Source of the DNA: Gammaproteobacteria bacterium
GTDB lineage: Bacteria > Pseudomonadota > Gammaproteobacteria > HIGHO2-12-38-15
Length of the DNA: 64,000 bases
Direction: 5' to 3'
Assembly: GCA_016218405.1 (NCBI GenBank)
Contig: JACREE010000014.1
Location: 4,988-68,987, forward strand
Every line of letters begins with the position of its first letter. The stretch's first letter is position 1. Under the pieces are notes generated by a model. The model had not been told where the DNA came from. It searched no databases and was given only the letters and a program-made list of their open reading frames with translations. A program made the position numbers and the translations under genes. Positions 1 through 59,668 of the stretch are shown here, in pieces.

Positions 1-25
1 CGTCCTAAAGTACGAGAGAATTTTT

Positions 26-865
26 ATGGCTGAAAAATTAGTCATTGTCGTGGGTGACAAAACAACCCATGGCGGGACAGTGATAAGCGGCAATGAAAGT
101 TTAGAAATTTCCGATAAAGCTGCTGCTTGTCTTGGCGATAAGGTTTCTTGTCCACTTCACGGCGAAACCACCATCATCGAAGGATTTCACAGCATGTCGC
201 TCAATCCTAACAAGACACTTGCTTATGATGGCTGCAAAACCAGTTGTGGCGCAGAACTCATTGCAGGATGCCAAACTATACTCTTCGTTGAAACTGATTC
301 TTCCCATTGTTTGGTATCGGCACCTGCTTCTGACCTCAACCAAAACGAAGATGAATTTAAATTATTTGTTGCTACCGTTTGGGGAGAAGTGGCAAATCAA
401 AGTGAAGCTGCTTGGCAAGCAGTTGGATCTGTAATCATAAATCGGGTTGGACATCCCTATTGGGGACGAAGGGCTACATCAGTCACCAAAGTTATTTTAA
501 ATACTGGATTTGACGCAGCCGCCAACAATCAGAACCATGAATTTAAAAAAGCACACACTTATTTATTCCATGAGAATTCAAGCAACATACTCAATGAGTT
601 CGAGAAAAAAACGCTCGCCAGAATGCAAAGCCTTCTGATACCAATTTACTACAACAAACAAGTCACAACGAATGCCCACCACTACTACAGCCCAAAAGAA
701 CAGCAAAGACAACATCAGCATGAATTAACCTTGGGCGTACCTGAAGAAAAATGCAGATACAAAAAAATCCCAACATTCACGACCGAAAAAACAGTAAATG
801 AAGTTCACGTCAAACTCTCCCCTCACGACGATTTGAAATTTTATCACCGCACCCAACTAAAATGA
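26..865 (+). CDS. PAAR-like N-terminal domain fused to SleB/CwlJ-type cell wall hydrolase (Hydrolase_2-like) domain; candidate secreted antibacterial toxin
   Basis: N-terminus has three PAAR-like motifs: VGDKTTHGGTVISG, AAACLGDKVSCPLHG and AYDGCKTSCGAELIAG. The mid region FVATVWGEVANQSEAAWQAVGSVIINRV...TKVILNTGFD matches the SleB/CwlJ cell-wall hydrolase signature. ATG at 26 is preceded by GAGAGA. Its stop overlaps the next ORF's start (ATGA). Confidence 0.5.
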   Translation: MAEKLVIVVGDKTTHGGTVISGNESLEISDKAAACLGDKVSCPLHGETTIIEGFHSMSLNPNKTLAYDGCKTSCGAELIAGCQTILFVETDSSHCLVSAPASDLNQNEDEFKLFVATVWGEVANQSEAAWQAVGSVIINRVGHPYWGRRATSVTKVILNTGFDAAANNQNHEFKKAHTYLFHENSSNILNEFEKKTLARMQSLLIPIYYNKQVTTNAHHYYSPKEQQRQHQHELTLGVPEEKCRYKKIPTFTTEKTVNEVHVKLSPHDDLKFYHRTQLK

Positions 866-1446
866 AAAAAATAATCCTGGCTTTATTTAACGTCATTTTT
901 ATTTTAAATTGCGCCTCAGCCAATGAAGGCATAACGCAAGAAACTTCTTTACAAGAGACACATGCCGGAAACTCCCTCATCATTGAATGCAAAATCACCA
1001 AAAAACCTTGCACAATAAAAATAAAAAACATCAATAATCAGTCAACAACTTTTAGCGATTTCATAGACATTAACAAAATTGGCATAACATGGCATGGTGA
1101 TAACCTGGTAGAATTAAGAAGAAGTCTCGGCACTAATGCCTCATTTTCCAAATTTTATGACTTTAAAAGAATGAGGGGTGCAAAAAAAGAATACCCGGGT
1201 GTTATCGCAATTGACGCCGCTCACAACTTAGTTGCCTATTGCGATAGCTATCTAGTCCTAGTTGATAATTTGTTTGATGATAAATTTAAATTGATAACAA
1301 TCTCCAGACCCTATGCAGGCAGCACCGAGAGCTCAGTTTATCGAAACGATTCACGCTTCACAAAAACAGGGGATCTGCAACTCTCCTACATGGCAATTAT
1401 TAATAAAAGATATGAAGAAAGAGATGAGCTAGTAAATTTGCCATAA
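862..1446 (+). CDS. secreted protein (N-terminal signal peptide), candidate immunity partner of upstream toxin
   Basis: The start overlaps the upstream stop (ATGA at 862-865). The N-terminus MKKIILALFNVIFILNCASA is signal-peptide-like. No recognisable catalytic motif. Confidence 0.4.
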   Translation: MKKIILALFNVIFILNCASANEGITQETSLQETHAGNSLIIECKITKKPCTIKIKNINNQSTTFSDFIDINKIGITWHGDNLVELRRSLGTNASFSKFYDFKRMRGAKKEYPGVIAIDAAHNLVAYCDSYLVLVDNLFDDKFKLITISRPYAGSTESSVYRNDSRFTKTGDLQLSYMAIINKRYEERDELVNLP

Positions 1447-1457
1447 GCGTCCTCTCT

Positions 1458-2366
1458 CTATGATCTTAAGGAGTACTGTGCCACCATCATCGCCCCCAAC
1501 CAACCCAGGCCCACACAAACCGTCAAAAAGAAAAATGAATCTATAAAACCAGGCTGAAGAGAAGTAAGGAGTGAATTCGTCGCGCTATTTAATTGTCGCA
1601 ATGGGGTATCTAAATAAGAAAAAAATCCAAACACCACACTCCAAGCCAATCCTCCGCCCAATAAACCTAATAGAGAGCCAATGTATAAGTAGGGACGACG
1701 CGTGTATGCCAAACTGGCTCCCACTAATTTCATGACACGAACTTCTTCCATTCTATGCATCAAAATCAATCGAAGCGTGTTACCGATGATCAACACGACC
1801 GCCAACCCAAATAAACAAGCCAAGGTGTAAATAAAACGTTTAGCCGTGGCCAGTACGGTATACAACTGTTGAATAGAATTAACGTTAATTTGGTTTTGAT
1901 CAACCAAAGGCAACCGGTGCAATTGCTGTATCAACGAATTCAATGCTTGTGGTGATAAATCAGCACGTGGCTCAATTTCTAACACGGGTGGCAGTGGATT
2001 TTGCTCCAACTGCAACACGACTTCTTTAAACCCCTCTCTGCGCGCCAATTGTGCTAAACCCATTTCGGGTGAAATATAATTCACTGACGCCACAGCAGAA
2101 TGATGTTGTAACTTTTCTTTTAAATCATGAATGGCAGCCGGGGGCGCACTCGCTTGCAAGTACAACACAATTTGCGCCTGATGCGTCCATTGATTAAATA
2201 GCGTGTTCGCATAACGCGATGCGAGCAACAAGCCCCAAGGTAAAGCTAAGGCTACGGCTATCACCAGTAAAGTGATCACACTTCCCACCCATCCTGCTTT
2301 TAAATAACGATAGGCTTCTCGATAAGCATGTTGATGCGCGCGAAAATAAACGGAGACATTACGCAT
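1458..2366 (-). CDS. ftsX: cell division ABC transporter permease FtsX
   Basis: 302 aa with FtsX-like topology and sequence. Its start overlaps the ftsE stop (2359-2366). Confidence 0.85.
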   Translation of the reverse strand: MRNVSVYFRAHQHAYREAYRYLKAGWVGSVITLLVIAVALALPWGLLLASRYANTLFNQWTHQAQIVLYLQASAPPAAIHDLKEKLQHHSAVASVNYISPEMGLAQLARREGFKEVVLQLEQNPLPPVLEIEPRADLSPQALNSLIQQLHRLPLVDQNQINVNSIQQLYTVLATAKRFIYTLACLFGLAVVLIIGNTLRLILMHRMEEVRVMKLVGASLAYTRRPYLYIGSLLGLLGGGLAWSVVFGFFSYLDTPLRQLNSATNSLLTSLQPGFIDSFFFLTVCVGLGWLGAMMVAQYSLRS

Positions 2367-3039
2367 AAGCAGTTTCCTTTTCCTTTTTTAAACGTCCACG
2401 TTGCAATGAGACGACACGATGCGGCATTTTTGCAATCAAAGCCAAGTCATGACTTGCTACCAATAAGGTGACTCCCACCTGATGAAATTGCTGAAACAAA
2501 GTCATGATGTCGCGCGCCAACTCCGGATCCAGGTTGCCCGTGGGTTCATCCGCTAACAAGGCAACGGGTTTATTCACAATGGCCCGCGCAATGCTCACAC
2601 GTTGCTGCTCTCCTACAGACAAAGCCGCAGGCAGTGATTTTTCTTTTTTCAACAGACCCACTTTGTCTAAAGCTGCACGCACTCGCTTAGGAATTTCTCT
2701 CGGATCAAAATTGGTGATATGCAGTGGTAGGGCCACATTATCAAATACGGTTCTATCCATCAGTAGGTGAGGGTTTTGAAAAATAATGCCCATTTGTTGA
2801 CGCAACTGCAAAGCATCACGCGGACTGATTTGATTTAAGTTAAGTTGATTAAAGAAAATCTGTCCTTGCGTAGGACGATCTAACATTGCAATTAACTTGA
2901 TAATCGTGGTTTTACCCGCACCTGAATGCCCCGTCAAAAAAACCAATTCACCTTTTTTGACTTCAAAACTGAGTTGCGCAAGCGCTTCATAACCTGAATC
3001 ATAGCGTTTGCTCACCTGCACAAATTGGATCATGTTCAT
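2359..3039 (-). CDS. ftsE: cell division ATP-binding protein FtsE
   Basis: Walker A GHSGAGKTT, ABC signature LSVGEQQRVSIARA and Walker B LLADEPTGNLD. 226 aa, immediately upstream of ftsX. Confidence 0.9.
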   Translation of the reverse strand: MNMIQFVQVSKRYDSGYEALAQLSFEVKKGELVFLTGHSGAGKTTIIKLIAMLDRPTQGQIFFNQLNLNQISPRDALQLRQQMGIIFQNPHLLMDRTVFDNVALPLHITNFDPREIPKRVRAALDKVGLLKKEKSLPAALSVGEQQRVSIARAIVNKPVALLADEPTGNLDPELARDIMTLFQQFHQVGVTLLVASHDLALIAKMPHRVVSLQRGRLKKEKETAYA

Positions 3040-3546: not shown

Positions 3547-4011
3547 TTATGACAAGTTATAGGAAAACAAATCGTTAGACGCACCACCGCCAGTATTTTC
3601 AAGCGCCAAAACAATAGGGCCCGTGCAATGTGAGTCTAGGAAAGTAGGAGACCATTGATTATTTATCGTTTGCATCTCAAACACACAGGTTCCCAAAACT
3701 TCTGCCGGGCTTGAGGAGGTGGGATCAACATACGTGTAGGTGGCCAGTGTATGTATTTCAGTATTATCAAGCAGACCAAGCCAATCCTCTTTCTCGCCAT
3801 AAGTCATATTAAAAATTTTCACATCTTGCGTATTTGCAGTGATGGTGGCGGGTGGAGACATACTCCCCTCCCCTGATACAAACTGATAGGAAAGCATCGT
3901 CATCACATAGTTCGATTGGTTATTAACAGCCCCGACAACATGAGATTTAGAAAATGGGTTATAAGCAAAAGCCGCTTGGCACCCCATCGCCAATACAACA
4001 ACAAATAACAT
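3547..4011 (-). CDS. hypothetical secreted protein
   Basis: Internal start gives MLFVVVLAMGCQAAFA, a signal-peptide-like N-terminus. No known motif. Confidence 0.35.
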   Translation of the reverse strand: MLFVVVLAMGCQAAFAYNPFSKSHVVGAVNNQSNYVMTMLSYQFVSGEGSMSPPATITANTQDVKIFNMTYGEKEDWLGLLDNTEIHTLATYTYVDPTSSSPAEVLGTCVFEMQTINNQWSPTFLDSHCTGPIVLALENTGGGASNDLFSYNLS

Positions 4012-4096
4012 GGAAAAATATTTATTCACTTTTTCAGCTCCACATAAGTTAATTAGGACAACTATTGTACCGACATCCAAATCATTTCACCAGGCT

Positions 4097-4666
4097 CTAA
4101 CGATGTTCTGGCGCCACCATAAAAATCCCTGGCGCATTTCGTAGGTACTCTTTGTAATCCATCCCATACCCAAACACAAAACCATCGCTGACGGTTAATC
4201 CTGTAAAGTCTGCTTCTGGCAATCCTTCGGGTAAGCGCACGTCTTTTTTATCTAACAACACGGCTGTCAACACTTGTTTAGCTTGTGCTTGAATACAAAA
4301 ATTCACAATTTCTTTTAGGGTGACACCGCCATCTAAAATATCATCCACAATCAACACCACACGATCTTTTAGATCACAACGCGGCTTCACTAACCAATGA
4401 AGCTCGCCTCCTCGCGTAGCACCACGATAGCGTGTCGCATGAATATAATCGACTTCCAGTGGAAAATTTAAACGAGGAAGTAAGTTACCCGCTGGAATTA
4501 ATCCGCCCACCATCACACAAAGAAAAACAGGGTTTTGGTCTGCCAAAGCCCTATTCATTTTTTCTGCCATACGATCTAAGGCATTTTCAATATCTTGCCG
4601 GGTATAAATACATTCTGCTTTATCTTGGACAACACGAACATGGGCTGGGATATTCATAAAATTCAC
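4097..4666 (-). CDS. hpt: hypoxanthine phosphoribosyltransferase
   Basis: PRTase motif VVLIVDDILDGGVTL. C-terminus VFGYGMDYKEYLRN resembles E. coli Hpt VVGYGIDYAQRYRH. 189 aa. Confidence 0.8.
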   Translation of the reverse strand: MNFMNIPAHVRVVQDKAECIYTRQDIENALDRMAEKMNRALADQNPVFLCVMVGGLIPAGNLLPRLNFPLEVDYIHATRYRGATRGGELHWLVKPRCDLKDRVVLIVDDILDGGVTLKEIVNFCIQAQAKQVLTAVLLDKKDVRLPEGLPEADFTGLTVSDGFVFGYGMDYKEYLRNAPGIFMVAPEHR

Positions 4667-5565
4667 ACACTACCCATTTGTCTTTCTTTGATTTCATCCA
4701 GCGTTTTACAGTCAATACAGAGTGTCGCTGTAGGACGTGCTTCTAAACGTCGAATACCAATCTCAACACCACAACTTTCACAATAGCCGTATTCATCTTG
4801 ATCGATCTTGGAGAGCGCTTCTTCGATTTTCTTAATCAATTTACGTTCTCTGTCTCGCGTTCTCAACTCCAAACCAAATTCAGCTTCTTGCGTGGCACGA
4901 TCATTAGGATCAGGAAAGTTAGCTGCCTCATCTTGCATATGGTGAACTGTTCGATCCACCTCTTGCATTAAGTCTTGCTTCCACTGATTAAGCATATGAC
5001 GAAAGTGCTCACGTTGAGCCTCATTCATATACTCCTCACCCGGTTTTTCGGAATAAGGTCGTACACCTACCATACCCAAATCAGATGTCTGCCCAATCTG
5101 TTTTTGAGGCTTCGCTTTTTTAGCAACTTTAACTTTACTTTTTACTTCGATCTCGCTCATAGGTTCCTTCTGGGTCTGCGCTTTAACAAAATCCGTCATC
5201 ACAGTCACATTACTTTTACTGACTGTTTCTTTCACTTTTTCAACTAATTTAATCGGTTTTTTAGCAATACTTTTTTTCACTATCGCTTGAGCGGGTATCA
5301 CGCGCTTAGCCACACTTTTTTTAGGAAATGATTTTTTAGCAACAGGTCGAGAGGATATTTTTTTTGCACTCTTTTTTGCTTTAATGAGTTTTACTACTTT
5401 CTTTGGCACCACCTTCTTTACGGCTGTTTTTTTAGACTTAGATTTGGACAATGTAGACTTAGCTGGTTTTGTTTTGCGGCTCAGCGCTGTTTTTCGAGCA
5501 GGTACCTTCGCCGCTTTCTTTACGCCTTTGGCCTTCACTGGCGCCTTCCTACTTTTTGCTGGCAT
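4663..5565 (-). CDS. dksA: RNA polymerase-binding transcription factor DksA with long lysine/alanine-rich (histone H1-like) N-terminal extension
   Basis: The C-terminal 135 aa are near-identical in pattern to E. coli DksA (KPGEEYMNEAQ..., DEAANFPDPNDRATQEAEF, C4 zinc finger CESCGVEIGIRRLEARPTATLCIDCK). About 160 stop-free lysine-rich codons (AKK/KKV repeats) lie in frame upstream. The true start is uncertain: 5565, or an internal ATG near 5097-5070 for a canonical-length DksA. Confidence 0.75.
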   Translation of the reverse strand: MPAKSRKAPVKAKGVKKAAKVPARKTALSRKTKPAKSTLSKSKSKKTAVKKVVPKKVVKLIKAKKSAKKISSRPVAKKSFPKKSVAKRVIPAQAIVKKSIAKKPIKLVEKVKETVSKSNVTVMTDFVKAQTQKEPMSEIEVKSKVKVAKKAKPQKQIGQTSDLGMVGVRPYSEKPGEEYMNEAQREHFRHMLNQWKQDLMQEVDRTVHHMQDEAANFPDPNDRATQEAEFGLELRTRDRERKLIKKIEEALSKIDQDEYGYCESCGVEIGIRRLEARPTATLCIDCKTLDEIKERQMGSV

Positions 5566-6548: not shown

Positions 6549-9500
6549 ATGACCAAACCCATCGTCATTCAAGGCGTTTCAAAACAAAAAGCTCATTTTG
6601 TAGGCTGGGTCAGCAAAACGCATTTCCACATCTTGGACATCAGACAAAATCCCACCTTTGCTTGCGTCAAACAGCTGTTGCAACCAGAAACCCTCTCACA
6701 ATCTACACTCGCGGAGCGCAAAGCCGTATTTTCTATTCTCAAGGAAATAGATCATCTGGGCCTTACCTTTCTCCAATTCGCCATACTTGCTTTAGAGGAC
6801 GATGACAGTGTCAAAGAGGTTTTAACACGGCTCGTCGCTCATGAAAATGAGGATGTCAATGCGCTTTCAACACTCACTCACGACTCTGCTTTACACATCG
6901 CGACTCTCCTCAACTTCCCAAAAACAATGGACGCACTTTTAGAATTAGGCGCTGTACCCGACATTATTAATGACGCAGGTTATCCCCCTCTGGCCTTAGC
7001 AGTTTATCTCGACTTTAGTGGCCATCTTGCCCATCCTTTATTGACACATCACAATATTGATCCGCTCATTCCATTTAATGGTGCTGATCCTTTTAGAGAA
7101 ATCCTCACCCTATCCGACCCCGTCATTGTTTCGGCTTTTTTAAACCACCCTATCGTTGGAGAAGAATTAACTGATCTTGTCGATGAAGCAGGCGGCGCCA
7201 GCGTGGTGCTCGGACAACTCTTTGAGCTTTTCCTCCTCACAAAAACCCGAGGTGACTCAGTAAGAGCACAAAATTTTCTGTCTATCTTAACTTCTTTGGT
7301 AGAAAAAGGACTGGATCCCTATGAACAATCGAATGCTGATTCGCCCAGCTTAATCATGCTCTCGATTTTTCATAAAGAGCCGCGTGTGTTTGACGCCGTT
7401 TTTATCGCAGAACGAGATATTTCTGTCTCTCGCACAAACTATCACTGCGTGGATCTTGTTCTTCAATGCGCCGATTTACCCTTCTTTAAACATATCGCAC
7501 GTACCCAAAAACCCTATCTTAATTATCTCATGCAAACTGACCCGCATTTTGCGGTCAAAGTGGCTCATTCGATGCTTGTTTATAATCATTTTAAGGCTCT
7601 CGACTGGCTATTTTTAGATTATCCAAATTTGGCACACATCGATATCAGCCCTTTGTCAAACGGAGGCACGCTCCTATTCAGCGCCGTACTTCGAGGTTTA
7701 TCTCAAAGTGTCTTGGCCCTTTGTCAACGCGGCGCCAACCCTAATATCGCCCTCACAGGTGATTATTATGGACCCGGCTCCAACAAAGTGGCTCTACCTA
7801 ACAATTTTCCAGCTCTTGTGTTTTCACCCAGCATTTATTCAACTTTTCGCGTTAAAAAAGGGGCGACTCCTTTACGCATTGCACTTTTGAATCGTGACTG
7901 GGACAATGTATTTACCCTTTTATTTTACGGCGCTAAATTTTCGTTACATGACAAAGAAGCCCTTCACCCCGTACTACTTGCACTTAGATATAAAAAAATA
8001 GAGTTGATTCGCCTCATTTTAAAAAAAGCATCACCACAACAAGAACGAAAAATATTGCTTTACTTTATCGCTAATAAAATCGCAGCTTATCGATTGGACA
8101 CAAAATTCCTTGTGTTAGAGGCCCTCAAAGCCAACCTACCTTCTTTACTTAAAAAATTAATTTCAACTCACCAAACACATCTTTACCGCGCCACAAAACG
8201 AACCAGAACAATACACTATACCGTCTTACCTCAACGTACCCACCTTTGGATTGAAAATTCAAAAGGGCGAAGTCTATTACACATCGCGCTGTTACTCACT
8301 CCACCCAAAAAAGAAAAAGAAAAAACTGCTTTCCTTAAAAACCAACACAAATGCATACAACTTTTAATAAACGAAATGAAAAAAAGAAACAGCGCTCGTT
8401 ATCAAAAATCAGTGGAAAACATTTTATTTTCGATCCACATTCATCCTCAACATACCGCCCAAATTCTCGAACTTTTAGCCCCCAAAGACCCCCTCGTCAT
8501 TTTAGCCATCCTCGATAAATTCGCCAGCCCAGGAAACACCATTGAGCGCTATTCTGTGATCAGGGAAATCATGCATGTCATTGAGCCCAGTGCATTATTA
8601 CGCCTAGCCAAACAACACGAAAAAACAAATCTAGCACAGTTTGTCACTCAGGAAATGCGTAACTCTATGCCTGTTGCTGATACTTCACCCACCACCACCT
8701 CAACTTCACCTTTAACCATTTTATCTACACCTAAAGCACAACCCAAACCTAAGCAACCTGCATCCACCTCACCCAAACAGGCTGTCGATTCAGCACCCAA
8801 AGATACCCTGTCCCTCTTTATTCAACACACAGCTGATAAGTTACTCACCTTAGCCTTACCAGCTAAAAGACCTTTTTCTCCTTTAGACAGGGCCTATTTT
8901 AATTTTTACTTTTTAAGATTGCTGAAACTCATCAGATCAACCCTTTTAACAGATAAAGATATCGTCTTTAGTAAACAAGTACCCTCTCATTATGTGAGGC
9001 ACCAACAAAAAAGAACGCTGGAGCTGTGTATTGCAAGTTTCATGTCACCCCAAACAGTGATCACAGAGGAAGAACAATCAAATATCATGAGATTTGTTAA
9101 AGAAGATTTACCTAATTTCGAACTTTTTATCCTTCATCTTAAAGAATTAAACTTTGAGGATCGTTGCTCAGAAGAAACAAAAGCCATACAAATGGCAGTG
9201 AACTTATCTACCTGCAGCGATGCCATTCTCGCCCGAACCATACTGCCTTATTTAGACGCCCTCAAAGAGGCATTGGAGATCAAAAAACTTTCTCAAACAG
9301 AATTATCTGTTTTTTTGTGCAATTATTTTATCCAGCTTGCTCCTTATCTTTCTCAGCTCAATATCAGAAGCGTCAGTTTGAAAGACACACTTCAAGCTTG
9401 GATAACACATTGCACTGCCCTCAATGAATCCCGCGCTTTTATTTTTCTGCCCGAAGAAGCCGGCTTTTTCGCACAACACAATCAAAAACGCTTCAACGGC

Positions 9501-20429: not shown

Positions 20430-22832
20430 TCAAGCGACCGCACAAACGCGAGGTGCTGCATCAGGTTCTTGACGATCTTCTCTCCTCGCTGCTTCAACTG
20501 CACAAGACGTCGGTGTTGGAAAAAAGCCACAATTTTTGGGTGCAGCAGAAGGTGTTATCAACGATAATGCTCGATGAAGTTCCGCTGACAATACTTCTTC
20601 TTTCTGTTGATGTTGTTTAACCACTTGTACTTCAATCGCTTCTCTCACAGCATGCACAACCTGTCTGTAACTTGCGCTGCTTGATGACGATGGAGCATTC
20701 GTTGACGAATCAACAGTATCAGATAGCTCTGGCACAATACACCTGATTGTTGTTTTCACAGCAACACCCTTATCATTCCCATTGTTATCATCCTGGGGAG
20801 GAGAAGGCGGGGCAGAGTTCGCGTTATTTCCATTGTCACCCCCCTGGGGAGAAGGCGGCGTACCTTCATCCTGAGTATTTGGCACACCCTGCGCTTTTCT
20901 CTTCGCCATAAAAGTTTGGATGCTTGCTTTTATCCCTCTAAAGAACTTATTCACTTCTTTGACAGCGGTTTCAATAAATTCCATGTATTCACGGAAAGTA
21001 TCCGCAAAAGATTCTGCACCAGCCAAAGCACCCAAGGCAGCCCCCGAACCTTTCGCTGCAGGAAACACATTGCCAATCACATTCCAAAATAAAAACTTGA
21101 GAAGCACCACACCCACAATGATCGTTTTCACTATTTTAGATTTATTGACATAACGCTCCCCACGCCATGCTTCTTTGGCTCGACGAATAATATCTAAGAC
21201 ATCGTTTGTCAGCGTTTTTGCATTATCTTTTGCCGTGTCAGAATGGAATTTCACTTCACCCAAGAAAGAGAAAGCGGCCACAGCCATTGAAATACCTTGA
21301 CACACCAACAGGGGTATTTCATGCAATTTCATGAGCATTTCAGAAATAGTTTGAAAACCACTGTACACGTTTAAAGCACAGCCCAAACACGCCACCACAA
21401 AAAATCCAACAAAGAAAAGTGCCGTGAAAGCCATACGTAAACCATAACGCAAATCAGACTCTTGGTGATTTTCTACTTCCCCAGATACACAACGCGGCAC
21501 CAATCTACGTTTAAATAAATTTTTGAAAAAATCCACAAATTTTTCACCCACGTGTCCTTTACTGGCGCTCACCATGCCACGCAACATCACTGCCGTGAGA
21601 ACAAGCACTGACACCACCGCCACAAAAGCAAAGAGAGGTGGGAAAGCAGCACTCGTCACGCCCAATGCAGTCAAAATACTAATGGCACCTGTGTAGGCAA
21701 AAACACCCGCCACCGCCCCTGTCGCCAACGCCATGAAAAATCCCACCCCCAACGCGGCGCGCTTAAGTGCACTCAACCCTTTAAACATATTAAATAAGTA
21801 GGCAAAAACACTAGGCGTGTTTTTACTGGATAAAGCATAATTGACCGAAAATCCGCCTAGAAAAACAAAGACGGGTATCACCAGTGGAATAGCAGGAAAA
21901 ACGATCAACAACATACCCGCCGTTGCACAGGCACACCCCAACGCAAAAATTAACGCAAAAATTTTACCTATCACATAGAACACTTTGTTAAACTTGCTTA
22001 AGGTAAAAAAAGCTTCGTCTTCAATTTTTTTCTTGGTTTCTTTATCATCCAACACCTTCAAGATGCGTTGACGAATGGCGTTGGCCATTGCTTTTTTTCT
22101 TTCACTTAACTGAAGAGCGGTTTGATAGGCGTCTTCATATACTTGTTCCGCTTTCTTTTTATCCGCATCCGCTTGACGCAAATAATTTTCGCGCGCTGCT
22201 CGACCCTTTTCTGATGCATAGATAGCCGTACTTCCTGTTCTCGTTAAGAAATCCACGAGCATGTCTTCTGAAACTTGTTCATCTAACCCTTTTTTCTTCG
22301 CTTCTTTTAGCTTGTTTTTTTCTTCTTCCAGCAGCGCTTCGAAGCGTGCTTTTTTATCGCTCTCCGAAAAAGTGTTTTCGCTGAGTTCTGGCAACAAACG
22401 TCTGCGTGCGCGGCATTCAACTTCATCTTTATGTCGTTTAGCGGTTTTTTCATCTTCCCCATCTTCATTAGACAAAATGTAAAAAGCTTTGATGACTTCA
22501 CGAATAAAGGCATTTTCTGCTTTGTTATAAAGTGGTTTTTTAAATGTGTCTCGCCCTGCTGCTTTGAGTTTTGCACCTTTCCCTTTTGAGGCATTCAATT
22601 CAAATGAACCCCATTTCACAAACTCTCCCTGAGGCACACTCCCTCTTTCCAGGGCAGGCAACACTTCTTCTTCTGCCAATATGATTTCTCTCAAGGCATG
22701 TCTTTTCGAACCAATCTTAATTCGATCAGGTGGCGAAAAAAATTTCTTGATGCGTTGAGCCCATGTTCCTTTATCTGCACTTTCGGAAGAAGAAAGGGCT
22801 TCTTCTACAATCAACTTCGCTTCAACACCCAT
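20430..22832 (-). CDS. large hypothetical membrane protein (800 aa): charged/coiled-coil N-terminal region, multi-TM core, Pro/Ser/Asn-rich C-terminal tail
   Basis: 800-codon stop-free ORF. Lys/Glu-rich N-terminal region, four or more strongly hydrophobic segments mid-protein, and a low-complexity tail (PPSPQGGDNGNNANSAPPSPPQDDNNGND). No catalytic motif recognised. Confidence 0.5.
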   Translation of the reverse strand: MGVEAKLIVEEALSSSESADKGTWAQRIKKFFSPPDRIKIGSKRHALREIILAEEEVLPALERGSVPQGEFVKWGSFELNASKGKGAKLKAAGRDTFKKPLYNKAENAFIREVIKAFYILSNEDGEDEKTAKRHKDEVECRARRRLLPELSENTFSESDKKARFEALLEEEKNKLKEAKKKGLDEQVSEDMLVDFLTRTGSTAIYASEKGRAARENYLRQADADKKKAEQVYEDAYQTALQLSERKKAMANAIRQRILKVLDDKETKKKIEDEAFFTLSKFNKVFYVIGKIFALIFALGCACATAGMLLIVFPAIPLVIPVFVFLGGFSVNYALSSKNTPSVFAYLFNMFKGLSALKRAALGVGFFMALATGAVAGVFAYTGAISILTALGVTSAAFPPLFAFVAVVSVLVLTAVMLRGMVSASKGHVGEKFVDFFKNLFKRRLVPRCVSGEVENHQESDLRYGLRMAFTALFFVGFFVVACLGCALNVYSGFQTISEMLMKLHEIPLLVCQGISMAVAAFSFLGEVKFHSDTAKDNAKTLTNDVLDIIRRAKEAWRGERYVNKSKIVKTIIVGVVLLKFLFWNVIGNVFPAAKGSGAALGALAGAESFADTFREYMEFIETAVKEVNKFFRGIKASIQTFMAKRKAQGVPNTQDEGTPPSPQGGDNGNNANSAPPSPPQDDNNGNDKGVAVKTTIRCIVPELSDTVDSSTNAPSSSSSASYRQVVHAVREAIEVQVVKQHQQKEEVLSAELHRALSLITPSAAPKNCGFFPTPTSCAVEAARREDRQEPDAAPRVCAVA

Positions 22833-28166: not shown

Positions 28167-28895
28167 TTATGCCCAGCGCGTATCCCTCAAATAACTCGAA
28201 GAATTTAACCAAGCCCTATCTGGGTAATAAGCCACGAGCACGGTTCCGTGTGAAATAGTGTCAATCACAGGTCGAACAACCTGCGGATCAATCGCAGGGC
28301 ATCCCCAACTTCGGCCAATTGCGCCATGTTGACGAGCATATTGGGTATTCACATACCATGCGCCGTGCATCACGATAGCGCGGTTATACACGTTATTATT
28401 AAATCCAGGCTCTAAACCTGTTAACCGAAGTGAATAGCCGTGCTCTCCTGCGTAGGTTGAGCCTGTGGCATAAACACCGATACTCGTCTTCAAACTATTG
28501 GGCTGATTCGAAAAGGAAGAAGCCACTACATCTCCACTATTCCTACCATGAGAGACCAACTCATTAAAAAGTAATCGCTCATTACGCAAATCAAATACCC
28601 AAAGTCGACGCTGATTGGAAGGTCTAGAATAATCGATAACCGTTAATACTTCTTTTTGATCATACCCTTCACTGCGCGCCTTATCATACGCATTCAGGGC
28701 CAACTTAATCACTTTTGGATTTAAATCTTGAGCTTGTTTGGATAACACACGCGCTGTTTTATCGGGATTAGGCAAACCAGGCAGACTTGCAGGGCGGCTC
28801 ACCGCGCCACACCCACCGCATACTAAGGTAAAAAGACAACATACCAAACTGAGTGACTTTTTTGTTTTACCGTTACTGAACTTAAACTTAATCAT
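28167..28895 (-). CDS. periplasmic L,D-transpeptidase family protein (YafK/ErfK-like)
   Basis: Signal peptide/lipobox (FTLVCGGCGA). C-terminal MHGAWYV...HGAIGRSWGCPAI resembles the L,D-transpeptidase catalytic His/Cys region. Confidence 0.5.
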   Translation of the reverse strand: MIKFKFSNGKTKKSLSLVCCLFTLVCGGCGAVSRPASLPGLPNPDKTARVLSKQAQDLNPKVIKLALNAYDKARSEGYDQKEVLTVIDYSRPSNQRRLWVFDLRNERLLFNELVSHGRNSGDVVASSFSNQPNSLKTSIGVYATGSTYAGEHGYSLRLTGLEPGFNNNVYNRAIVMHGAWYVNTQYARQHGAIGRSWGCPAIDPQVVRPVIDTISHGTVLVAYYPDRAWLNSSSYLRDTRWA

Positions 28896-29025: not shown

Positions 29026-29529
29026 TTATAAAATATCCGCACCGATTAAATATTCGATAAGAACTAACCCCCCAATCACCAACAAAATAAGTGAAAAAAT
29101 AAGCAGTGCGGGATGACGCTCCTCAAATCCCTTCGCTTCTTCCGTTCCTTTCAGCTCACGCCCTTCATCCCGCTCATCTGCCACGGCTTTTTCATGCAAT
29201 TTCGCCAGCTCTGCATCTTTTTTTTCCAGCGTCACAGTAGCGTGCCAAGAAATAAAAAAAAGCAATCCACTCGCTAACAAAAAAGGGGCTATCAATACGA
29301 CACGGTGCCAGAATCCCTGCAAGTCATTGTGCTCCTCGAGCCATCCAGACAGGGTGATAACAAAATCAGGCACCGTGGACGTTGCATTAAAAAAAACATA
29401 AGGAATCATCACTAAAATAAACAACAGCACAATAAGCCCTATGACAGAACTCAATACACCTACAAAAAACAGGGGGGCATCGGCGCTAGGTTGGTTACGG
29501 CTCATACTAATTACTCCCTTCTGTATCAT
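29026..29529 (-). CDS. hypothetical integral membrane protein
   Basis: 3-4 predicted TM segments and a charged central loop. No motif. Confidence 0.35.
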   Translation of the reverse strand: MIQKGVISMSRNQPSADAPLFFVGVLSSVIGLIVLLFILVMIPYVFFNATSTVPDFVITLSGWLEEHNDLQGFWHRVVLIAPFLLASGLLFFISWHATVTLEKKDAELAKLHEKAVADERDEGRELKGTEEAKGFEERHPALLIFSLILLVIGGLVLIEYLIGADIL

Positions 29530-33826: not shown

Positions 33827-34981
33827 TCAAGCTCTTGCCAACGCTCTATGACGGCAACGTGCTGTCTCCATATCGTTATAAGGTTGGATGATGAGCCTTC
33901 CTAAACGACCCCCCGTCAAGACGGATTCAATCGCCTTGTCCGACATAAATCCCATTTCTTCAAGCGCAGGTTTTATCGTTTTGGCATCCAAAATAAACAA
34001 CCCTCCCTCCTCCTCTTCATTTATTTTTTTTGAAATTAACGATAAACAAGCTCTCGCGACATTTAATTTATTTTTTTGACTACAATCTGAACGCCAAAGA
34101 CGCTGCACAGCCAGGTGATAATCAGCCCCCTCCAAGGTACGTAGTTTGATGTATTCCTCCAAAAACCACTGCGTCCTTTTATATAAAGCTTGGCGAGATG
34201 TCACACCTTCTCCTGACACAAACAAAAGATAAAAATTTAGATTATCCATCTTCAATTCTTCAGGACGTATTATTGTTAGGCGAGCGCCTGCCAAGATCAG
34301 ACGTATCATCAAACGCACACTCCACTCACTCCCTGAATGAGCATAACGACAAACAAGCAACACCTTTTCCAAAAAAGAATATCGCTTCTCTCTCCTTTCA
34401 GCAGGAGGTTTAGCGTGAACATCCGCCCCCACACTCAACGCACTACAGACAGCATGGTACACTTCTCCTTCTATCCCCTCGCCTCTGCGCAATAATCGAT
34501 AAAGAAAAGGATTCCCAGCACTGTCCCTTGCATCAACATCAGCCCCCCATCGTTTTAATTTTTCTAATTTTTTCTTTTTTTCTTGAGTCAATTCTTTGCC
34601 TTGACTAATTTCCAACATAAAAGCCACATTAATTAACTCAACAGACGCATCATGCACCCTTTCTCTATTTTCTTTTTTATTTTGCAAAATTTCAATTTTC
34701 AACAAAGCTTTTATTTCTTCTTCTGTTTCTTCCTGACCAATGAGCTGCAAAATTACTTTTGCAACATTTTCCACTGAAAACCCAATGACACCGCGATTTA
34801 CCCATTCTTCAATAGGAACAGGCTTTCGTTGACGAACAGCCGATAAATAGAGCGTCACCCACCTTGAATCAGGCACAAGTTTTTGCGATAAATCATCATC
34901 GCTCAAGTTCTTCAAGGCTACTAACTCACCAGTTAACTCGCTTTCCCCCAGATACTTTATTTGATTTGCTCCACCTGACAT
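33827..34981 (-). CDS. ankyrin-repeat-like protein, candidate effector; 3' end of ABC gene overlaps its start
   Basis: Ankyrin loop signatures WGADVDARDSAGNPFLYRLL and SVGADVHAKPP. Otherwise novel. Start set at MSGGANQ; the track ORF extends to 35017. Confidence 0.45.
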   Translation of the reverse strand: MSGGANQIKYLGESELTGELVALKNLSDDDLSQKLVPDSRWVTLYLSAVRQRKPVPIEEWVNRGVIGFSVENVAKVILQLIGQEETEEEIKALLKIEILQNKKENRERVHDASVELINVAFMLEISQGKELTQEKKKKLEKLKRWGADVDARDSAGNPFLYRLLRRGEGIEGEVYHAVCSALSVGADVHAKPPAERREKRYSFLEKVLLVCRYAHSGSEWSVRLMIRLILAGARLTIIRPEELKMDNLNFYLLFVSGEGVTSRQALYKRTQWFLEEYIKLRTLEGADYHLAVQRLWRSDCSQKNKLNVARACLSLISKKINEEEEGGLFILDAKTIKPALEEMGFMSDKAIESVLTGGRLGRLIIQPYNDMETARCRHRALARA

Positions 34982-35661
34982 AAGCACCCCTCCTCCATTC
35001 GCAAAACACGCCCACAACGCTCTGCCACCTTTTCTTCATGCGTAATCAACACCACTGTCATACCATCATGTCGATTAAGAGACAGAAACAGAGACATAAT
35101 TTCATCGCTTGTACGCCTATCTAAAGCGCCTGTCGGTTCGTCAGCCAATAATAAATGGGGTTCTCCCACCAAAGCACGCGCAATTGCCACACGCTGTTGT
35201 TGTCCTCCTGATAATTGCGTTGGTTTTCTATCGTGAAATTCTTCTAATCCTACTTTCTTTAGCATTTTAAATGATTGTTCTTTGATTTTTTCGGGAGAAA
35301 GATTGCGGTACAACAACGGTAATCCCACATTTTGCAAAGCGGTCATACGCGGAAGCAAGAAAAAAGATTGAAAAACAAACCCAATGGTTCGATTTCGTAA
35401 TGCAGCTAATTCATCTTCTTCATACGAGAATACATCACATTCATTCAGATAATATTTACCTGATGTAGGGTGATCTAAAACACCCAAAATATTCATCAAT
35501 GTTGATTTACCCGATCCCGACTCACCTACAATACCGACAAATTCACCCGTTTCAATCTGCAGATTCACTCCATTTAACACGGGGAATGCAACATCATTCA
35601 GATAATAATTTTTACAAATGTTTTCAAGTTTTACGATGGACAAGAATATGATCTCCTGCAA
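34957..35661 (-). CDS. ABC transporter ATP-binding protein (MacB/LolD/DevA-type ATPase, no fused permease)
   Basis: Walker A GESGSGKST, signature LSGGQQQRVAIARA, Walker B LLLADEPTGALD. 234 aa. Confidence 0.8.
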   Translation of the reverse strand: MQEIIFLSIVKLENICKNYYLNDVAFPVLNGVNLQIETGEFVGIVGESGSGKSTLMNILGVLDHPTSGKYYLNECDVFSYEEDELAALRNRTIGFVFQSFFLLPRMTALQNVGLPLLYRNLSPEKIKEQSFKMLKKVGLEEFHDRKPTQLSGGQQQRVAIARALVGEPHLLLADEPTGALDRRTSDEIMSLFLSLNRHDGMTVVLITHEEKVAERCGRVLRMEEGCLCQVEQIK

Positions 35662-55372: not shown

Positions 55373-55448
<76 letters not shown>

Positions 55449-55489
55449 CAAAAATCAAGTGATTTCATGTTTTCCATTAGCTGCCACTC

Positions 55490-56125
55490 TTAACCTCTTA
55501 ACAACGTCCTCACTTCCTCATCGCTTGTTTGAGGAAAGTGTTGATACCCTTCACCCACCGATGAAAACAGCGCAGGGCTGAGTATACAAATAAATTCATC
55601 TACGGATTGTTTAATTTCTTCTGCTGTTTGTATTTCTGAAATAGGCACAGCCACCACTATTTTTTCAGGATCATATTTCTTGAGAACGTGAATGGCCACC
55701 TTCATGGTCGCACCCGTTGCCACGCCATCATCCACTAAAATAATCGTTTTATTTTTAAGAGACGGAAAAGCCCGCTCCCCTCTGTATTTTTTTTCATTTT
55801 CTTTTAGCAACTTTGTTTTTTGAAAAATAATTTCGTCCATCACCTCTTTTGAAAGATTAAAATTTTCAATCACCTCCCGGTTAAACACAATTTCGCCCAA
55901 GGCGATGGCACCAAAAGCCACTTCTTCATAACCCGGCACACCCAATTTTTTCACTACTAATACATCTAAAGGAAGAGACAACGCTTGTGCAATTTCATAC
56001 GCCACGGGCACCCCCCCACGCGGCAGCGCAACCACCCAAACATTTTTCCGCTTCGTATAAGCACGGAGTTTATTTGCCAATAATTTCCCCGCCTCAGCAC
56101 GATCTAAAAATTTTTCCATTGACAT
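55490..56125 (-). CDS. putative phosphoribosyltransferase (type I PRTase fold)
   Basis: PRPP-binding loop IILVDDGVATGATM. Start at MSMEKFLDRAEAGKLLANKL, typical of COG1926-like proteins. Confidence 0.55.
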   Translation of the reverse strand: MSMEKFLDRAEAGKLLANKLRAYTKRKNVWVVALPRGGVPVAYEIAQALSLPLDVLVVKKLGVPGYEEVAFGAIALGEIVFNREVIENFNLSKEVMDEIIFQKTKLLKENEKKYRGERAFPSLKNKTIILVDDGVATGATMKVAIHVLKKYDPEKIVVAVPISEIQTAEEIKQSVDEFICILSPALFSSVGEGYQHFPQTSDEEVRTLLRG

Positions 56126-56294
56126 AAACACTCCTTTCGAATGGCTGAATTTTAAGCAATGGAATGAATTATATGATGGGTATAACAATCATATATCAAT
56201 ATAATATGGGCGTCATATCCATCATACATTTCCATCACAGATGGAAATCTCGGTTATTCCAGCAAGGAGTACCCCAGAGAGCTTGTTATACTAT

Positions 56295-57623
56295 CTACAT
56301 CAACAAAAAACGCCACAAAGGTAATATTTTTACATCATTTTTTTGCTTATCATCCCCACCCAGCGCATGACTTAACACAACAATTTTTTCAGAACCCGGA
56401 AATAATTTTGCAACATCATTAAGATTAGAAATTTCATGGGGCTTTAGCTCAATATTGTCTTGATTTCCACAGACTACTTGTATTAACTTTTTCACGGAAT
56501 TACCTTCTCGCACGACAAAATCAATCTCTCCTCCTTTATTAATGTAAAATAAACCATCTTGTACTTGACGCATAAGCCCCTGGTATACGGCTGTTTCAAT
56601 CACATGCCCTATATCCAAGGAATTAGAAAGAGTTAAAACTTGACGAAACCCCAAATCAATCGCATGAATTTTTTTGGGGTTACGATTTCTTTCCGACACT
56701 TTAAGGCTGTAATAAGGCAGAAAATCAATCAAAAATGCCTCTTGTAAATAATCACAATAAGCATGAGCTAAATCTAATGAGACATCGAATAATTTTGAAA
56801 TTCGTTGAAATGAAACCAAGCTTGCTGTATGCGTAAGTAAATGCACAGCCAATCCTCTTAACAACATTACGTCACGAATATTGTGTCTTATTGCCACGTC
56901 TTTAAATAAAATATCATCAAAATATTGCTTCAATAACAACTCTTTTCGTAACTCATTCTCAGAAATAACCACCTCAGGAAAACCACCCCATTTGAGATAT
57001 TTTTTAAGCGCGTGATGAACCTCTGGCCTTGCGGGGAGCAACAAAGGTTGCTTAGGAGATTCGATCCCCTCAAAACGTAAAAATTCTTTAAAGGATAAAG
57101 GGAATACCCTAAAAGAAATATGTCGACCCGTTAACAAAGTTCCTAATTCTCTAGACATCAATTTCGATGAAGAACCCGTAATAAATATTTTAATATTTTC
57201 TGTGTCATTTCTTGCGCGAACCCATCTCTCCCATTGAGCTACATTTTGTATTTCATCTAAAAACAAATAAATTTTCCCGACAGGAAATATATTCTCACGA
57301 TAATTTTTGTAAATTTTTTCCAATAAATCGACATTGAGATGCGGAGAAAAAGCAGGTTCCTCAAAATTAACATGCAACATCGATTCAGGAGCAACCCCTT
57401 TCTCAGTTAATAAATCCATAATTTGGAACAAAATAGTTGTTTTACCTGCGCGCCTTGGACCCGTGAAAACAACGATTTCTTTCGTTTCTAAAAAAAGCCT
57501 CACCTTAGATAAAATATCTCGCCTTTCCCCCCCTGACAACATTGCCCCGCCCCAGCGATTCCACTTAGCTAAAACCTCAAACAAAGACATATCGCCTCCA
57601 TATATGATGGTTATATCAATCAT
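56295..57623 (-). CDS. AAA+ ATPase with DUF4143-type C-terminal domain
   Basis: Walker A GPRRAGKTT, Walker B LFLDEIQ, C-terminal nuclease-like DUF4143 region. 442 aa. Confidence 0.7.
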   Translation of the reverse strand: MIDITIIYGGDMSLFEVLAKWNRWGGAMLSGGERRDILSKVRLFLETKEIVVFTGPRRAGKTTILFQIMDLLTEKGVAPESMLHVNFEEPAFSPHLNVDLLEKIYKNYRENIFPVGKIYLFLDEIQNVAQWERWVRARNDTENIKIFITGSSSKLMSRELGTLLTGRHISFRVFPLSFKEFLRFEGIESPKQPLLLPARPEVHHALKKYLKWGGFPEVVISENELRKELLLKQYFDDILFKDVAIRHNIRDVMLLRGLAVHLLTHTASLVSFQRISKLFDVSLDLAHAYCDYLQEAFLIDFLPYYSLKVSERNRNPKKIHAIDLGFRQVLTLSNSLDIGHVIETAVYQGLMRQVQDGLFYINKGGEIDFVVREGNSVKKLIQVVCGNQDNIELKPHEISNLNDVAKLFPGSEKIVVLSHALGGDDKQKNDVKILPLWRFLLM

Positions 57624-57668
57624 ATTATACTAACATATGATGGTTATATCAATCATATATTAGTATAA

Positions 57669-57974
57669 CACTCAACCTCTGCAGCCACACGAATTTTCAG
57701 ACAAAAAATAACGTTAATAGACTGGTATAGTCGTTATGTTTTAGATTGGGAATTAAGTATTACGTTGGAAGCTGATTTTTGTATTGATACGTTGTCGAGA
57801 GTATTAGCCGCTGAAAAATGTAATATTTTCAACACAGATCAAGACTCTCAATTTACAAGTAAAAATTTCACTGGATTATTAAAACAAAATGATATAAAAA
57901 TCAGCATGGATGGAAAAGGCCGCGCCTTGGACAAAGTACACAGCTTATTTAATGAATGGAAATATGCAAGGTAA
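57669..57974 (+). pseudogene. IS3-family transposase (rve integrase core) remnant
   Basis: The frame encodes ...DWYSRYVLDWELSITLEADFCIDTLSRV...NTDQDSQFTSKNFTGLLKQNDIKISMDGKGRALDKV, i.e. the middle and end of an IS3 OrfB-like integrase. It lacks the N-terminus and HTH, and the DN has degraded to DK. Confidence 0.5.
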
Positions 57975-57979
57975 TACTT

Positions 57980-59395
57980 ATGGATCTTAGTCAAGTTAAA
58001 GCGCTGATACAGCAGGGTGAGTCACATAACCTTGAATTCAAGAAATCTACCACACAATTAAAACCAGCATGCGAAACAATCTGTGCATTTTTAAATACGA
58101 AAGGTGGAACTGTCCTGATTGGAGTTAAAGATGATGGCCAAATCATCGGGCAGCACTTGACAGATAATACTCGTCAGGAAATCGCTCGTGAAATTAAAAA
58201 AATTGAACCGCCTTCAAACGAGCAGATAAATATTGATTATGTACTTTTTGATGATAATAAATTTGTAATTGTGATCGATGTTATTGCTGGTGGTCATGCA
58301 CCTTATACTTACGATGGTCGTCCGTATGTACGTATCGAGTCTTCAACAGGATTGATGTCGCAACATCTCTATGAGCAATTACTCGTTCGACGTGGCCAAC
58401 TAAATCATGCGTGGGACACGCAGCTAGCGAAAGGATATACAATTAATTCATTGGATCATGAAGACATTCGTCGAACCATAAAAGAAGGTGTTGATAAACA
58501 TAGAATTGGAATTGAAGTGCTTAATTATGATATCGATCATATATTGCGCAGTTTAGAATTAATCAAGAATGATAAACTGGTTAATGCTGCTGTTGTACTC
58601 TATGCGAAAGACGTAAAGCCCGATTACTCACAATGCATGATCAGATTGGCTAGATTCAGAGGAATCGATAAATTAGGCGATTTTATTGATAATCAACGGG
58701 TGTATGGTAATGCTTTCCGAATTATATCTGCCGCATTGGAATTTGCCATGCGTCATTTACCGATCGCTAGTTTTTTTGAACCTGGCAATATACAAAGAAT
58801 CGATCAGCCGGCTGTTCCACAACTTGCGCTTAGAGAAGCTTTAGTTAACGCCATTTCTCATCGCGATTACACCAATCATTCTGCAACAATTTCATTGGCA
58901 ATCTATGATGACAGGTTGGAGCTATGGAATAACGGTGTATTGCCACCACAATTGAGTTTTGCTGCTTTGCGAAAAAGGCACGAGTCGTATCCTAGGAATA
59001 AAACCATAGCGACTATTTTTTATGAACAAGGGTGGGTTGAAGGCTGGGGAACCGGAACAACTCGAATGATAGGGTATTGCCAAAAAAATGGTACACCCGA
59101 ACCTGAATTTGAGGAATATTCTGGTGGTTTTGTGGTTATTTTTCGATTTAAAGAGCCAATGGGCGGGGGAGGAAAAATAAGTAATATTGAAAAACCAGCT
59201 TTAAACAAAAGACAGGAAAAAATACTCGAAATTCTAACAGGTGGAAAGGCGCTAAGCGCAAATGAAATATTTGATCAACTAGATGATGTTGCTAGTTTAC
59301 GAACTGTTAAAGCTGACTTGGCAGCATTGAAAAAATTGTTATTGCTCGAACAAATTGGGAAAGGCAGAGCAACGGTTTGGAAGGTTAGAAAATAA
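57980..59395 (+). CDS. AlbA_2 (Schlafen-like divergent AAA) + HATPase_c_4 + C-terminal wHTH protein ('RecG-like putative transcriptional regulator')
   Basis: N-terminus LIQQGESHNLEFKKS...ICAFLNTKGGTVLIGVKDDGQI is the AlbA_2 signature. C-terminal HTH-like KRQEKILEIL. 471 aa from the ATG at 57980. Confidence 0.7.
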   Translation: MDLSQVKALIQQGESHNLEFKKSTTQLKPACETICAFLNTKGGTVLIGVKDDGQIIGQHLTDNTRQEIAREIKKIEPPSNEQINIDYVLFDDNKFVIVIDVIAGGHAPYTYDGRPYVRIESSTGLMSQHLYEQLLVRRGQLNHAWDTQLAKGYTINSLDHEDIRRTIKEGVDKHRIGIEVLNYDIDHILRSLELIKNDKLVNAAVVLYAKDVKPDYSQCMIRLARFRGIDKLGDFIDNQRVYGNAFRIISAALEFAMRHLPIASFFEPGNIQRIDQPAVPQLALREALVNAISHRDYTNHSATISLAIYDDRLELWNNGVLPPQLSFAALRKRHESYPRNKTIATIFYEQGWVEGWGTGTTRMIGYCQKNGTPEPEFEEYSGGFVVIFRFKEPMGGGGKISNIEKPALNKRQEKILEILTGGKALSANEIFDQLDDVASLRTVKADLAALKKLLLLEQIGKGRATVWKVRK

Positions 59396-59397
59396 CG

Positions 59398-59437
59398 AAT
59401 CGTGCAGAATCGTGCAGAATCGTGCAGAATCGTGCAG
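59398..59437. repeat. perfect 10-bp tandem repeat (AATCGTGCAG) x4
   Basis: Read directly; begins 2 nt after the stop of the preceding CDS. Confidence 0.9.
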
Positions 59438-59470
59438 AAATCGCATAACTATTTGATTGATTTCATATTT

Positions 59471-59632
59471 ATACCCCTTGTACCTGAAGGGACTGGTTTT
59501 TGAGGAAGTATTTTTTGCAAGGTAAAATTCTTTCTCGAACAAGCAATAGTCTACTCTGTTGCGAGCGAGAGAAAGTTTTACCTTGCGGAAAAGACAAACT
59601 CAAAAATCAGCATCTTCAGGTACAAGGGGTAT
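59471..59632. repeat. nested palindromic MITE-like element / long hairpin
   Basis: Outer 20-bp arms ATACCCCTTGTACCTGAAGG / TCTTCAGGTACAAGGGGTAT (19 of 20 complementary). Inner arms GCAAGGTAAAATTCTTTCTCG / CGAGAGAAAGTTTTACCTTGC. A 25-bp mini-version of the same stem occurs at 40053-40077. Confidence 0.5.
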
Positions 59633-59668
59633 ATATGATGGTTGCTCAATTAACGGGTAGATTTAACG

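Follow-up and report, generated by a model that had tools for sequence, protein, structure and literature searches.

The gene pair described here has its closest published counterpart in T6EC3 of Acinetobacter rudis CIP 110305, a type VI secretion system (T6SS) toxin in which a PAAR domain is joined to a SleB-like toxin domain (Geller et al. 2024, Mol Syst Biol, PMC11148199). T6EC3 is toxic in the periplasm of Escherichia coli and is neutralized by T6IC3, an immunity protein with its own signal peptide (PMC11148199). Beyond this study, our literature search found no paper linking Hydrolase_2, the Pfam family of the SleB catalytic domain, to the T6SS. We analyzed a 64,000-nucleotide stretch of a Gammaproteobacteria bacterium genome (contig JACREE010000014.1 of assembly GCA_016218405.1, positions 4,988 to 68,987 of the forward strand), hereafter called the window, which begins with two overlapping open reading frames (ORFs). 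ORF1 and ORF2 are currently labeled "PAAR domain-containing protein" and "hypothetical protein," respectively. Comparative sequence analysis suggests that they are probably a specialized T6SS effector and its immunity protein. The pair and its translation signals are located as follows (window coordinates).

26..865, + strand: ORF1, 279 amino acids (aa), predicted PAAR plus SleB-like effector, complete gene, taken from the open-reading-frame list
862..1446, + strand: ORF2, 194 aa, predicted periplasmic cognate immunity protein
862..865, + strand: ATGA overlap of the ORF2 start with the ORF1 stop, read from the sequence as translational coupling
14..19, + strand: GAGAGA, a possible ribosome-binding site 6 nucleotides (nt) 5' of the ORF1 ATG, proposed from the sequence only

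Domain architecture of ORF1

Two domains separated by a linker were recognized in ORF1.

50..265, + strand: PAAR domain (aa 9-80; Pfam PF05488, Foldseek), the predicted cone that caps a VgrG spike
275..340, + strand: flexible linker (aa 84-105; predicted local distance difference test score, pLDDT, below 50), its length varying among homologues (alignment A1)
347..862, + strand: SleB/Hydrolase_2-like domain (aa 108-279; PF07486, PDB profile, Foldseek), predicted lytic transglycosylase toxin
386..388, + strand: codon GAA of Glu121, the predicted catalytic glutamate of the WGE motif

The initial annotation had described the N terminus of ORF1 as PAAR-like, and profile and structure searches bear this out. 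The Pfam PAAR_motif profile matches aa 9-80 with 70.6 bits (E=1.4e-19) against a gathering cutoff of 27 bits and is covered over its full length (profile positions 1-70). In the AlphaFold2 (AF2) model of ORF1 (mean pLDDT 81), aa 5-80 are β-rich, with parts of the PAAR region modeled at only moderate pLDDT (50-89). Foldseek matched this N-terminal part to the PAAR proteins 4jiw_D (E=1.2e-3, prob 1.0, TMt 0.58) and 4jiv_D (prob 1.0), and the model resembles the conical β-structure of solved PAAR proteins. The nearest annotated relatives of the domain are small core PAARs (44-47% identity) encoded within T6SS clusters, such as those of Rahnella aquatilis (VgrG, PAAR, TssM/VasK, and TssA) and Burkholderia thailandensis (VgrG, PAAR, and TssF). 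NCBIfam returned only weak echoes of T6SS_PAAR_dom and spore_SleB for ORF1, and a search of a plasmid collection returned PAAR-domain matches only.

The second half of the proposed fusion, a SleB/CwlJ-type hydrolase, scored 25.0 bits with Pfam Hydrolase_2 (PF07486; E=3e-5, aa 125-228) against a cutoff of 27 bits. Because this score lies below the threshold, the identity of the domain was probed in three further ways. First, a profile built from ORF1 and 13 homologues matched the PDB entries 4f55 and 4fet, both SleB catalytic domains (E=2e-4 and 5e-4, respectively); the family motif F-x-L-F-V-A-T-V-(W/Y)-G-E...S-V-I-x-N-R-V aligned with L-M-A-N-A-V-Y-G-E...A-V-I-L-N-R-V of SleB, and VATVWGE of ORF1 fell on AVYGE. 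Second, aa 108-279 form a helical domain in the AF2 model, with pLDDT above 90, that has the SleB catalytic-domain fold according to Foldseek (4fet_B, E=4.5e-3, prob 1.0, TMt 0.57, 127 columns; 4f55, prob 1.0). Third, a profile of the C-terminal domain alone, searched against 1.84 billion proteins, retrieved 338 cluster representatives at E<=1e-3 (about 340 clusters, drawn at 50% identity); of the 130 best of these, 81 have a Pfam match to Hydrolase_2, the best with E=6.8e-13. Glu121, which the PDB profile aligns with the GE of the SleB AVYGE motif, is conserved: together with N139, R140, and F162, it is invariant in close homologues, as read for Glu121 from homologue alignments A1 and A3, and each of these residues occurs in 90% or more of the 130 best family representatives. 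The glutamate of the SleB GE motif was reportedly identified as the catalytic residue by Li et al. in 2012. In T6EC3, the glutamate equivalent to Glu121 is needed for toxicity, the E108Q variant being non-toxic, and the assignment of the SleB catalytic glutamate also rests on this study (Geller et al. 2024, PMC11148199).

On the grounds of the PDB profile match, the AlphaFold/Foldseek match to SleB, and the conserved Glu121, the C-terminal part of ORF1 is identified as a SleB/Hydrolase_2-like domain, and the fusion to PAAR that had been read from the letters alone is upheld. The domain would act as a lytic transglycosylase.

The downstream partner ORF2

The overlap at positions 862-865 that had been said to join the two genes was found, and the prediction that the coupled partner carries a signal peptide is supported by both its sequence and its model. 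The N terminus of ORF2 can be divided into an n-region (MKK), an h-region (IILALFNVIFIL) with a hydrophobic core of 12 residues, and a c-region (NCASA|NEG).

862..921, + strand: Sec signal peptide of ORF2 (aa 1-20; predicted cleavage at ASA|NE), read from the sequence

The AF2 model of ORF2 (pLDDT 70, pTM 0.64) consists of a helix at aa 2-20 followed by an all-β body, and the N termini of all ORF2 homologues have the same signal-peptide form. ORF2 matches no family in Pfam or NCBIfam. A word-indexed search with the single ORF2 sequence finds only the sequence itself, and a profile finds three distant proteins; the family was exposed instead by synteny and by local tblastn and hidden Markov model (HMM) searches. 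Judged from its sequence and position, ORF2 most likely protects the producing cell, presumably by binding ORF1.

Carriers and partners of the toxin domain across homologues

For the toxin domain and the downstream family, local HMMs were built and searched against the window and all of the 41 loci that had been fetched. A gene of the ORF2 family lies directly 3' of the toxin domain in 29 of the 32 independent copies with readable downstream sequence; the three exceptions are locus L019, the truncated copy in L025, and the remnant in L035/36. Every readable PAAR-type homologue is followed directly by a gene for a 180- to 210-aa protein with a signal peptide, and several of these proteins are 31-41% identical to ORF2. 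The ORF2-like, L009-like, and Hcp-linked subfamilies of the partner are homologous to one another (hhalign probabilities of 99.0, 96.9, and 95.3%), and none of 22 family members tested matched Pfam.

The same toxin domain is found on other parts of the T6SS projectile. In P0014 and P0015, Hcp is the carrier (43-45% identity over the toxin domain), and a signal-peptide gene again overlaps the toxin stop codon; the Hcp-fusion loci L008 and L011 have the same 4-nt overlap as ORF1 and ORF2. PAAR and Hcp carriers alike are followed by the immunity-family partner. The T6SS-type carriers that Pfam identified in the 130 nearest representatives are T6SS_HCP (7), Phage_GPD/VgrG (5), PAAR (4), DUF4280 (3), and RHS (3); the Phage_GPD/VgrG carriers also have DUF2345 and Phage_base_V. 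The PAAR domain of homologue P0013, conversely, is 69% identical to that of ORF1 and is followed by an unrelated C terminus, which indicates swapping of toxin domains. The toxin domain is thus covalently joined to a spike or tube component, PAAR in ORF1 and Hcp, VgrG, DUF4280, or RHS elsewhere, and the gene directly downstream, with its signal peptide and ATGA overlap, is aimed at the compartment in which the toxin would act. The same toxin recurs on many carriers, a given carrier bears different toxins, and the downstream partner is faithfully kept; together, these patterns form the signature of polymorphic T6SS effector-immunity pairs, in agreement with the toxin-immunity pair that the initial annotation had proposed.

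Members of Hydrolase_2 also serve as ordinary wall hydrolases with wall-binding domains, and among the same 130 representatives LysM (9), PG_binding_1 (7), and Peptidase_M23 (7) occur. It could be argued on this basis that ORF1 is a housekeeping enzyme remodeling the cell's own wall and that ORF2 is an unrelated secreted protein, the more so as the convergent neighbors FtsX and FtsE regulate wall hydrolases.

1458..3039, - strand: ftsX and ftsE, convergent neighbors of ORF2

This explanation is scarcely credible: ORF1 has no signal peptide, the PAAR domain has no known role outside contractile injection machines, and the ORF2 family is tied to the toxin domain in the 29 of 32 loci described above.

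Gene boundaries and the two-gene cassette

The initial annotation had cautioned that ORF1 may run upstream of the window. The caution was reasonable, since the 25 nt 5' of ORF1 in the window contain no in-frame stop, but ORF1 has no upstream extension. In a second assembly of the same locus (L001), the TAA stop of a class-III aminotransferase gene lies 17 nt 5' of the ORF1 ATG, and the NCBI annotation of an identical MAG (metagenome-assembled genome) protein is likewise 279 aa long; ORF1 is therefore complete at its 5' end. On the other side, the stop of the convergent ftsX lies 11 nt from the ORF2 stop. A scan of the ORF1-ORF2 locus for promoters and terminators found nothing above background. 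Base composition was examined as a signal of horizontal transfer: ORF2 has a GC content of 35.9% versus 42.3% for the window, and ORF1 is not AT-richer. The heptamer GCGTCCT brackets the two-gene cassette, with one copy at the end of the aminotransferase gene (window positions 2-8, one base before the window start being counted in L001) and one just after the ORF2 stop (1447-1453). The two copies may be a target-site duplication or a chance occurrence.

Delivery

All PAAR-type cassettes examined lie among housekeeping genes, at differing sites, next to folK, hemCDXY, or dnaN-recF-gyrB. A Pfam scan of approximately 50 ORFs of the window found no component of a T6SS or of an extracellular contractile injection system (eCIS), as had been stated for the T6SS; specifically, no vgrG, hcp, or tss gene was present. 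The ORFs scanned are housekeeping genes (among them ClpB, MutS, SpoT, AsmA, NadE, HemA, PrfA, PrmC, FtsEX, DksA, Prs, Pth, and YchF). Outer-membrane proteins, a pair of L,D-transpeptidases, an ankyrin-repeat protein of 1065 aa, and a small island of low GC content make up the rest. The 859-aa AAA+ protein has ClpB-type domains and housekeeping neighbors. The 10-kb flanks of the PAAR-type homologues (L002, L005, L025, L035/36, and L041) likewise contain no T6SS structural genes. T6SS-positive bacteria commonly carry orphan PAAR effectors at a distance from their main T6SS cluster, so the missing T6SS near the cassette does not show that the organism lacks one. If ORF1 is an effector, the organism would possess a working T6SS able to fire it.

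The PAAR domain might alternatively tip another contractile machine, such as an eCIS, a tailocin, or a prophage tail, with the hydrolase digesting the wall during penetration. Phage tail spikes often bear peptidoglycan hydrolases. There are also PAAR subtypes able to serve either a T6SS or an eCIS (PMC8651086). We consider this origin very improbable. Neither the window nor the homologue flanks contain sheath, tube, baseplate, or phage genes, a search for Afp-like eCIS sheath, tube, and baseplate genes in the window and the 10-kb flanks being negative, and the hydrolase domain found no match in 50,697 phage records. Moreover, a periplasmic immunity gene of its own fits an interbacterial toxin and not a structural lysin, and the Hcp and VgrG fusions of the same toxin domain point to the T6SS.

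Amplification and decay in relatives

In related genomes, the cassettes are both multiplied and broken. MAG MFD00731.bin.2.180 (L011-L019) contains five Hcp-SleB-like toxin-immunity cassettes and MAG SZAS-81 (L010, L013, L014, L016, L018, L020, and L022) contains seven; such cassettes are arranged in tandem in L011 and L012, and an IS66 transposase has truncated one of them. The toxin genes of P0008 and P0011 are each broken by a single frameshift, at different positions, while the immunity genes 3' of them are intact, and each frameshifted gene was recovered identically from two to three independent assemblies. L025 contains a truncated toxin gene and no immunity gene, and L035/L036 contain a PAAR remnant only.

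L002:10001-10847 and L005:720-1552: frameshifted PAAR-SleB toxin genes, downstream immunity genes intact
L002:8392-9631, - strand: second, divergent cassette with an Hcp remnant (aa 1-66) and part of the SleB-like domain
L021:9983-11020 (= L037): stand-alone 150-aa SleB-like ORF with an immunity-family gene (E=1.7e-11)

The second cassette of L002 continues with an immunity-family gene and then two 174-aa ORFs of unknown function. The L021 cassette comes from a MAG labeled Firmicutes bacterium UBA4881, from a fermentation metagenome, in which a T6SS would be unexpected.

This pattern bears on whether the pair is a stranded relic. By that account, the T6SS has been or is being lost and the pair is an orphan cassette, with ORF1 undelivered and heading toward a pseudogene; as a variant within the same account, ORF2 is retained against related toxins of other bacteria, or the pair is an addiction module. 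Independent frameshifts beside intact immunity genes in a related metagenome would fit, as would the further decayed copies (the L025 truncation, the L035/L036 PAAR remnants, and the Hcp-toxin remnant of L002), the lack of T6SS genes near the PAAR-type loci examined and in the window, and the tight placement of the cassette between housekeeping genes at distances of 17 and 11 nt. ORF1 itself, however, is intact over 279 codons and retains every invariant residue of the family, including Glu121, additional copies are intact as well (P0002-P0007, P0009, P0010, and P0026), and orphan PAAR effectors are, as said, a usual feature of T6SS-positive bacteria. We regard a relic, in either form, as unlikely.

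Several observations weigh against the interpretation of the pair as a T6SS effector and immunity protein. The Hydrolase_2 score of ORF1 is 2 bits under the Pfam cutoff. The model of ORF2 is only moderately confident, and none of its structural matches to known immunity proteins was convincing. T6SS structural genes were found neither among the approximately 50 window ORFs scanned nor in the 10-kb flanks of the PAAR-type homologues. Finally, the system may be decaying in this lineage, since related toxin genes are frameshifted, truncated, or reduced to remnants.

Proposed mechanism

For a T6SS effector and immunity protein, the following course of events can be proposed. The VgrG spike would be tipped by the PAAR domain of ORF1 and, upon T6SS firing, would bring the C-terminal domain tethered to it into a neighboring Gram-negative cell's periplasm. 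There the SleB-like domain, with Glu121 as the putative general acid, would act on peptidoglycan as a lytic transglycosylase and cut its glycan strands, and the target cell would round up and then lyse. Synthesis of ORF2 would be coupled to that of the toxin by the ATGA overlap, and the Sec pathway would export ORF2 to the periplasm of the producer, where it would bind and block toxin delivered by sister cells.

Genomic setting

Other features were noted in the window and its relatives.

6549..9746, + strand: ankyrin-repeat protein, 1065 aa, a eukaryote-like feature typical of host-associated bacteria
9835..10593, + strand, and 28167..28895, - strand: L,D-transpeptidase genes (YkuD and YkuD_2), two within 64 kb
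4663..5565, - strand: DksA homologue, 300 aa, with DksA_N and the zinc finger confined to aa 183-287
55373..61429: low-GC stretch (35-37%, versus 42% for the window) adjoining a tRNA gene (55373-55445)
20430..22832, 33827..35017, 3547..4080, and 29026..29529, all - strand: ORFs of 800, 396, 177, and 167 aa, respectively, without a Pfam match

The first approximately 180 aa of the DksA homologue form a lysine/alanine-rich, histone-H1-like extension. The low-GC stretch contains two AAA_14/DUF4143 ATPases, a Schlafen AlbA_2/HATPase_c_4 protein, and a GNAT acetyltransferase and is possibly an integrated island or a defense locus. An ankyrin protein is also encoded on the related contig L002, and F-box and leucine-rich-repeat (LRR) proteins are encoded beside the toxin cassettes of MAG MFD00731.bin.2.180. 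The ankyrin, F-box, and LRR proteins of this genome and its relatives are a hint that the lifestyle is host-associated.

A host-associated gammaproteobacterium that has no T6SS and nonetheless keeps an intact pair would imply either a novel PAAR route or a selfish addiction or defense cassette, which we consider rather improbable. In a milder version, the toxin-immunity superfamily may serve protist-associated bacteria as a specialized weapon; MAGs with many F-box, LRR, and ankyrin proteins contain it in multiple copies, and no database includes its immunity fold.

Significance

SleB-type lytic transglycosylases joined the list of T6SS toxins only in 2024, through a single tested protein. The present comparison suggests that the SleB-like domain is a widely shared toxin module, with some 340 clusters at 50% identity and PAAR, Hcp, VgrG, DUF4280, and Rhs carriers, that travels with one dedicated periplasmic immunity family missing from Pfam. 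The module occurs mainly in uncultured, possibly protist-associated bacteria, in which copies are both amplified and decaying. For the window, the outcome is a solid functional annotation of two genes; what is added beyond it is the definition of the immunity superfamily, the wide range of carriers, and the way in which copies multiply and decay. A defined immunity family is now at hand for testing against a new class of cell-wall toxins.

Comparison with known systems

ORF1 and ORF2 do not constitute a new kind of system, the architecture of a PAAR-SleB toxin with its immunity protein having been published in 2024 as T6EC3/T6IC3. The likeness extends to the N-terminal PAAR domain, an overall size of about 280-290 aa, a C-terminal domain that is structurally SleB-like (PDB 4F55) with a glutamate matching the catalytic glutamate of SleB, and an immunity gene that, like ORF2, has a natural periplasmic signal peptide. 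The two toxins differ in that the C-terminal domain of T6EC3 has no Pfam match, whereas ORF1 is close to Hydrolase_2, and in their hosts, A. rudis in one case and an uncultured groundwater gammaproteobacterial MAG in the other. No Acinetobacter protein was found among the related loci and the top 150 representatives, so ORF1 and T6EC3, likened here by architecture, may be only distant relatives.

With SleB/CwlJ of Bacillus (Hydrolase_2; PDB 4F55 and 4FET), ORF1 shares the catalytic fold as well as the (Y/W)GE...NR(V) motif, catalytic glutamate included. SleB, in contrast, begins with a PG_binding_1 domain and works during germination on the muramic-lactam cortex of its own cell. ORF1 instead combines a PAAR domain with additional C-terminal elements (aa ~230-279), is accompanied by a cognate immunity gene, and comes from a Gram-negative host. 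Tge1/Tse3-Tsi3, Tge2, Tge3, and VgrG3-TsiV3 resemble the pair as periplasmic glycan-cutting T6SS toxins with periplasmic immunity proteins encoded by adjacent genes. Tge1/Tse3, Tge2, Tge3, and VgrG3 have lysozyme or chitosanase-like folds, however, and not the SleB fold, and they are mostly cargo effectors, not PAAR fusions. The Hcp-toxin fusions (P0014 and P0015; MAGs SZAS-81 and MFD00731.bin.2.180) have a homologous toxin domain, 36-45% identical to that of ORF1, and a homologous immunity gene that overlaps the toxin stop codon. They differ from ORF1 in their carrier, the Hcp tube instead of the PAAR tip, and in their number, with five to seven copies per genome, some of them truncated by IS66.

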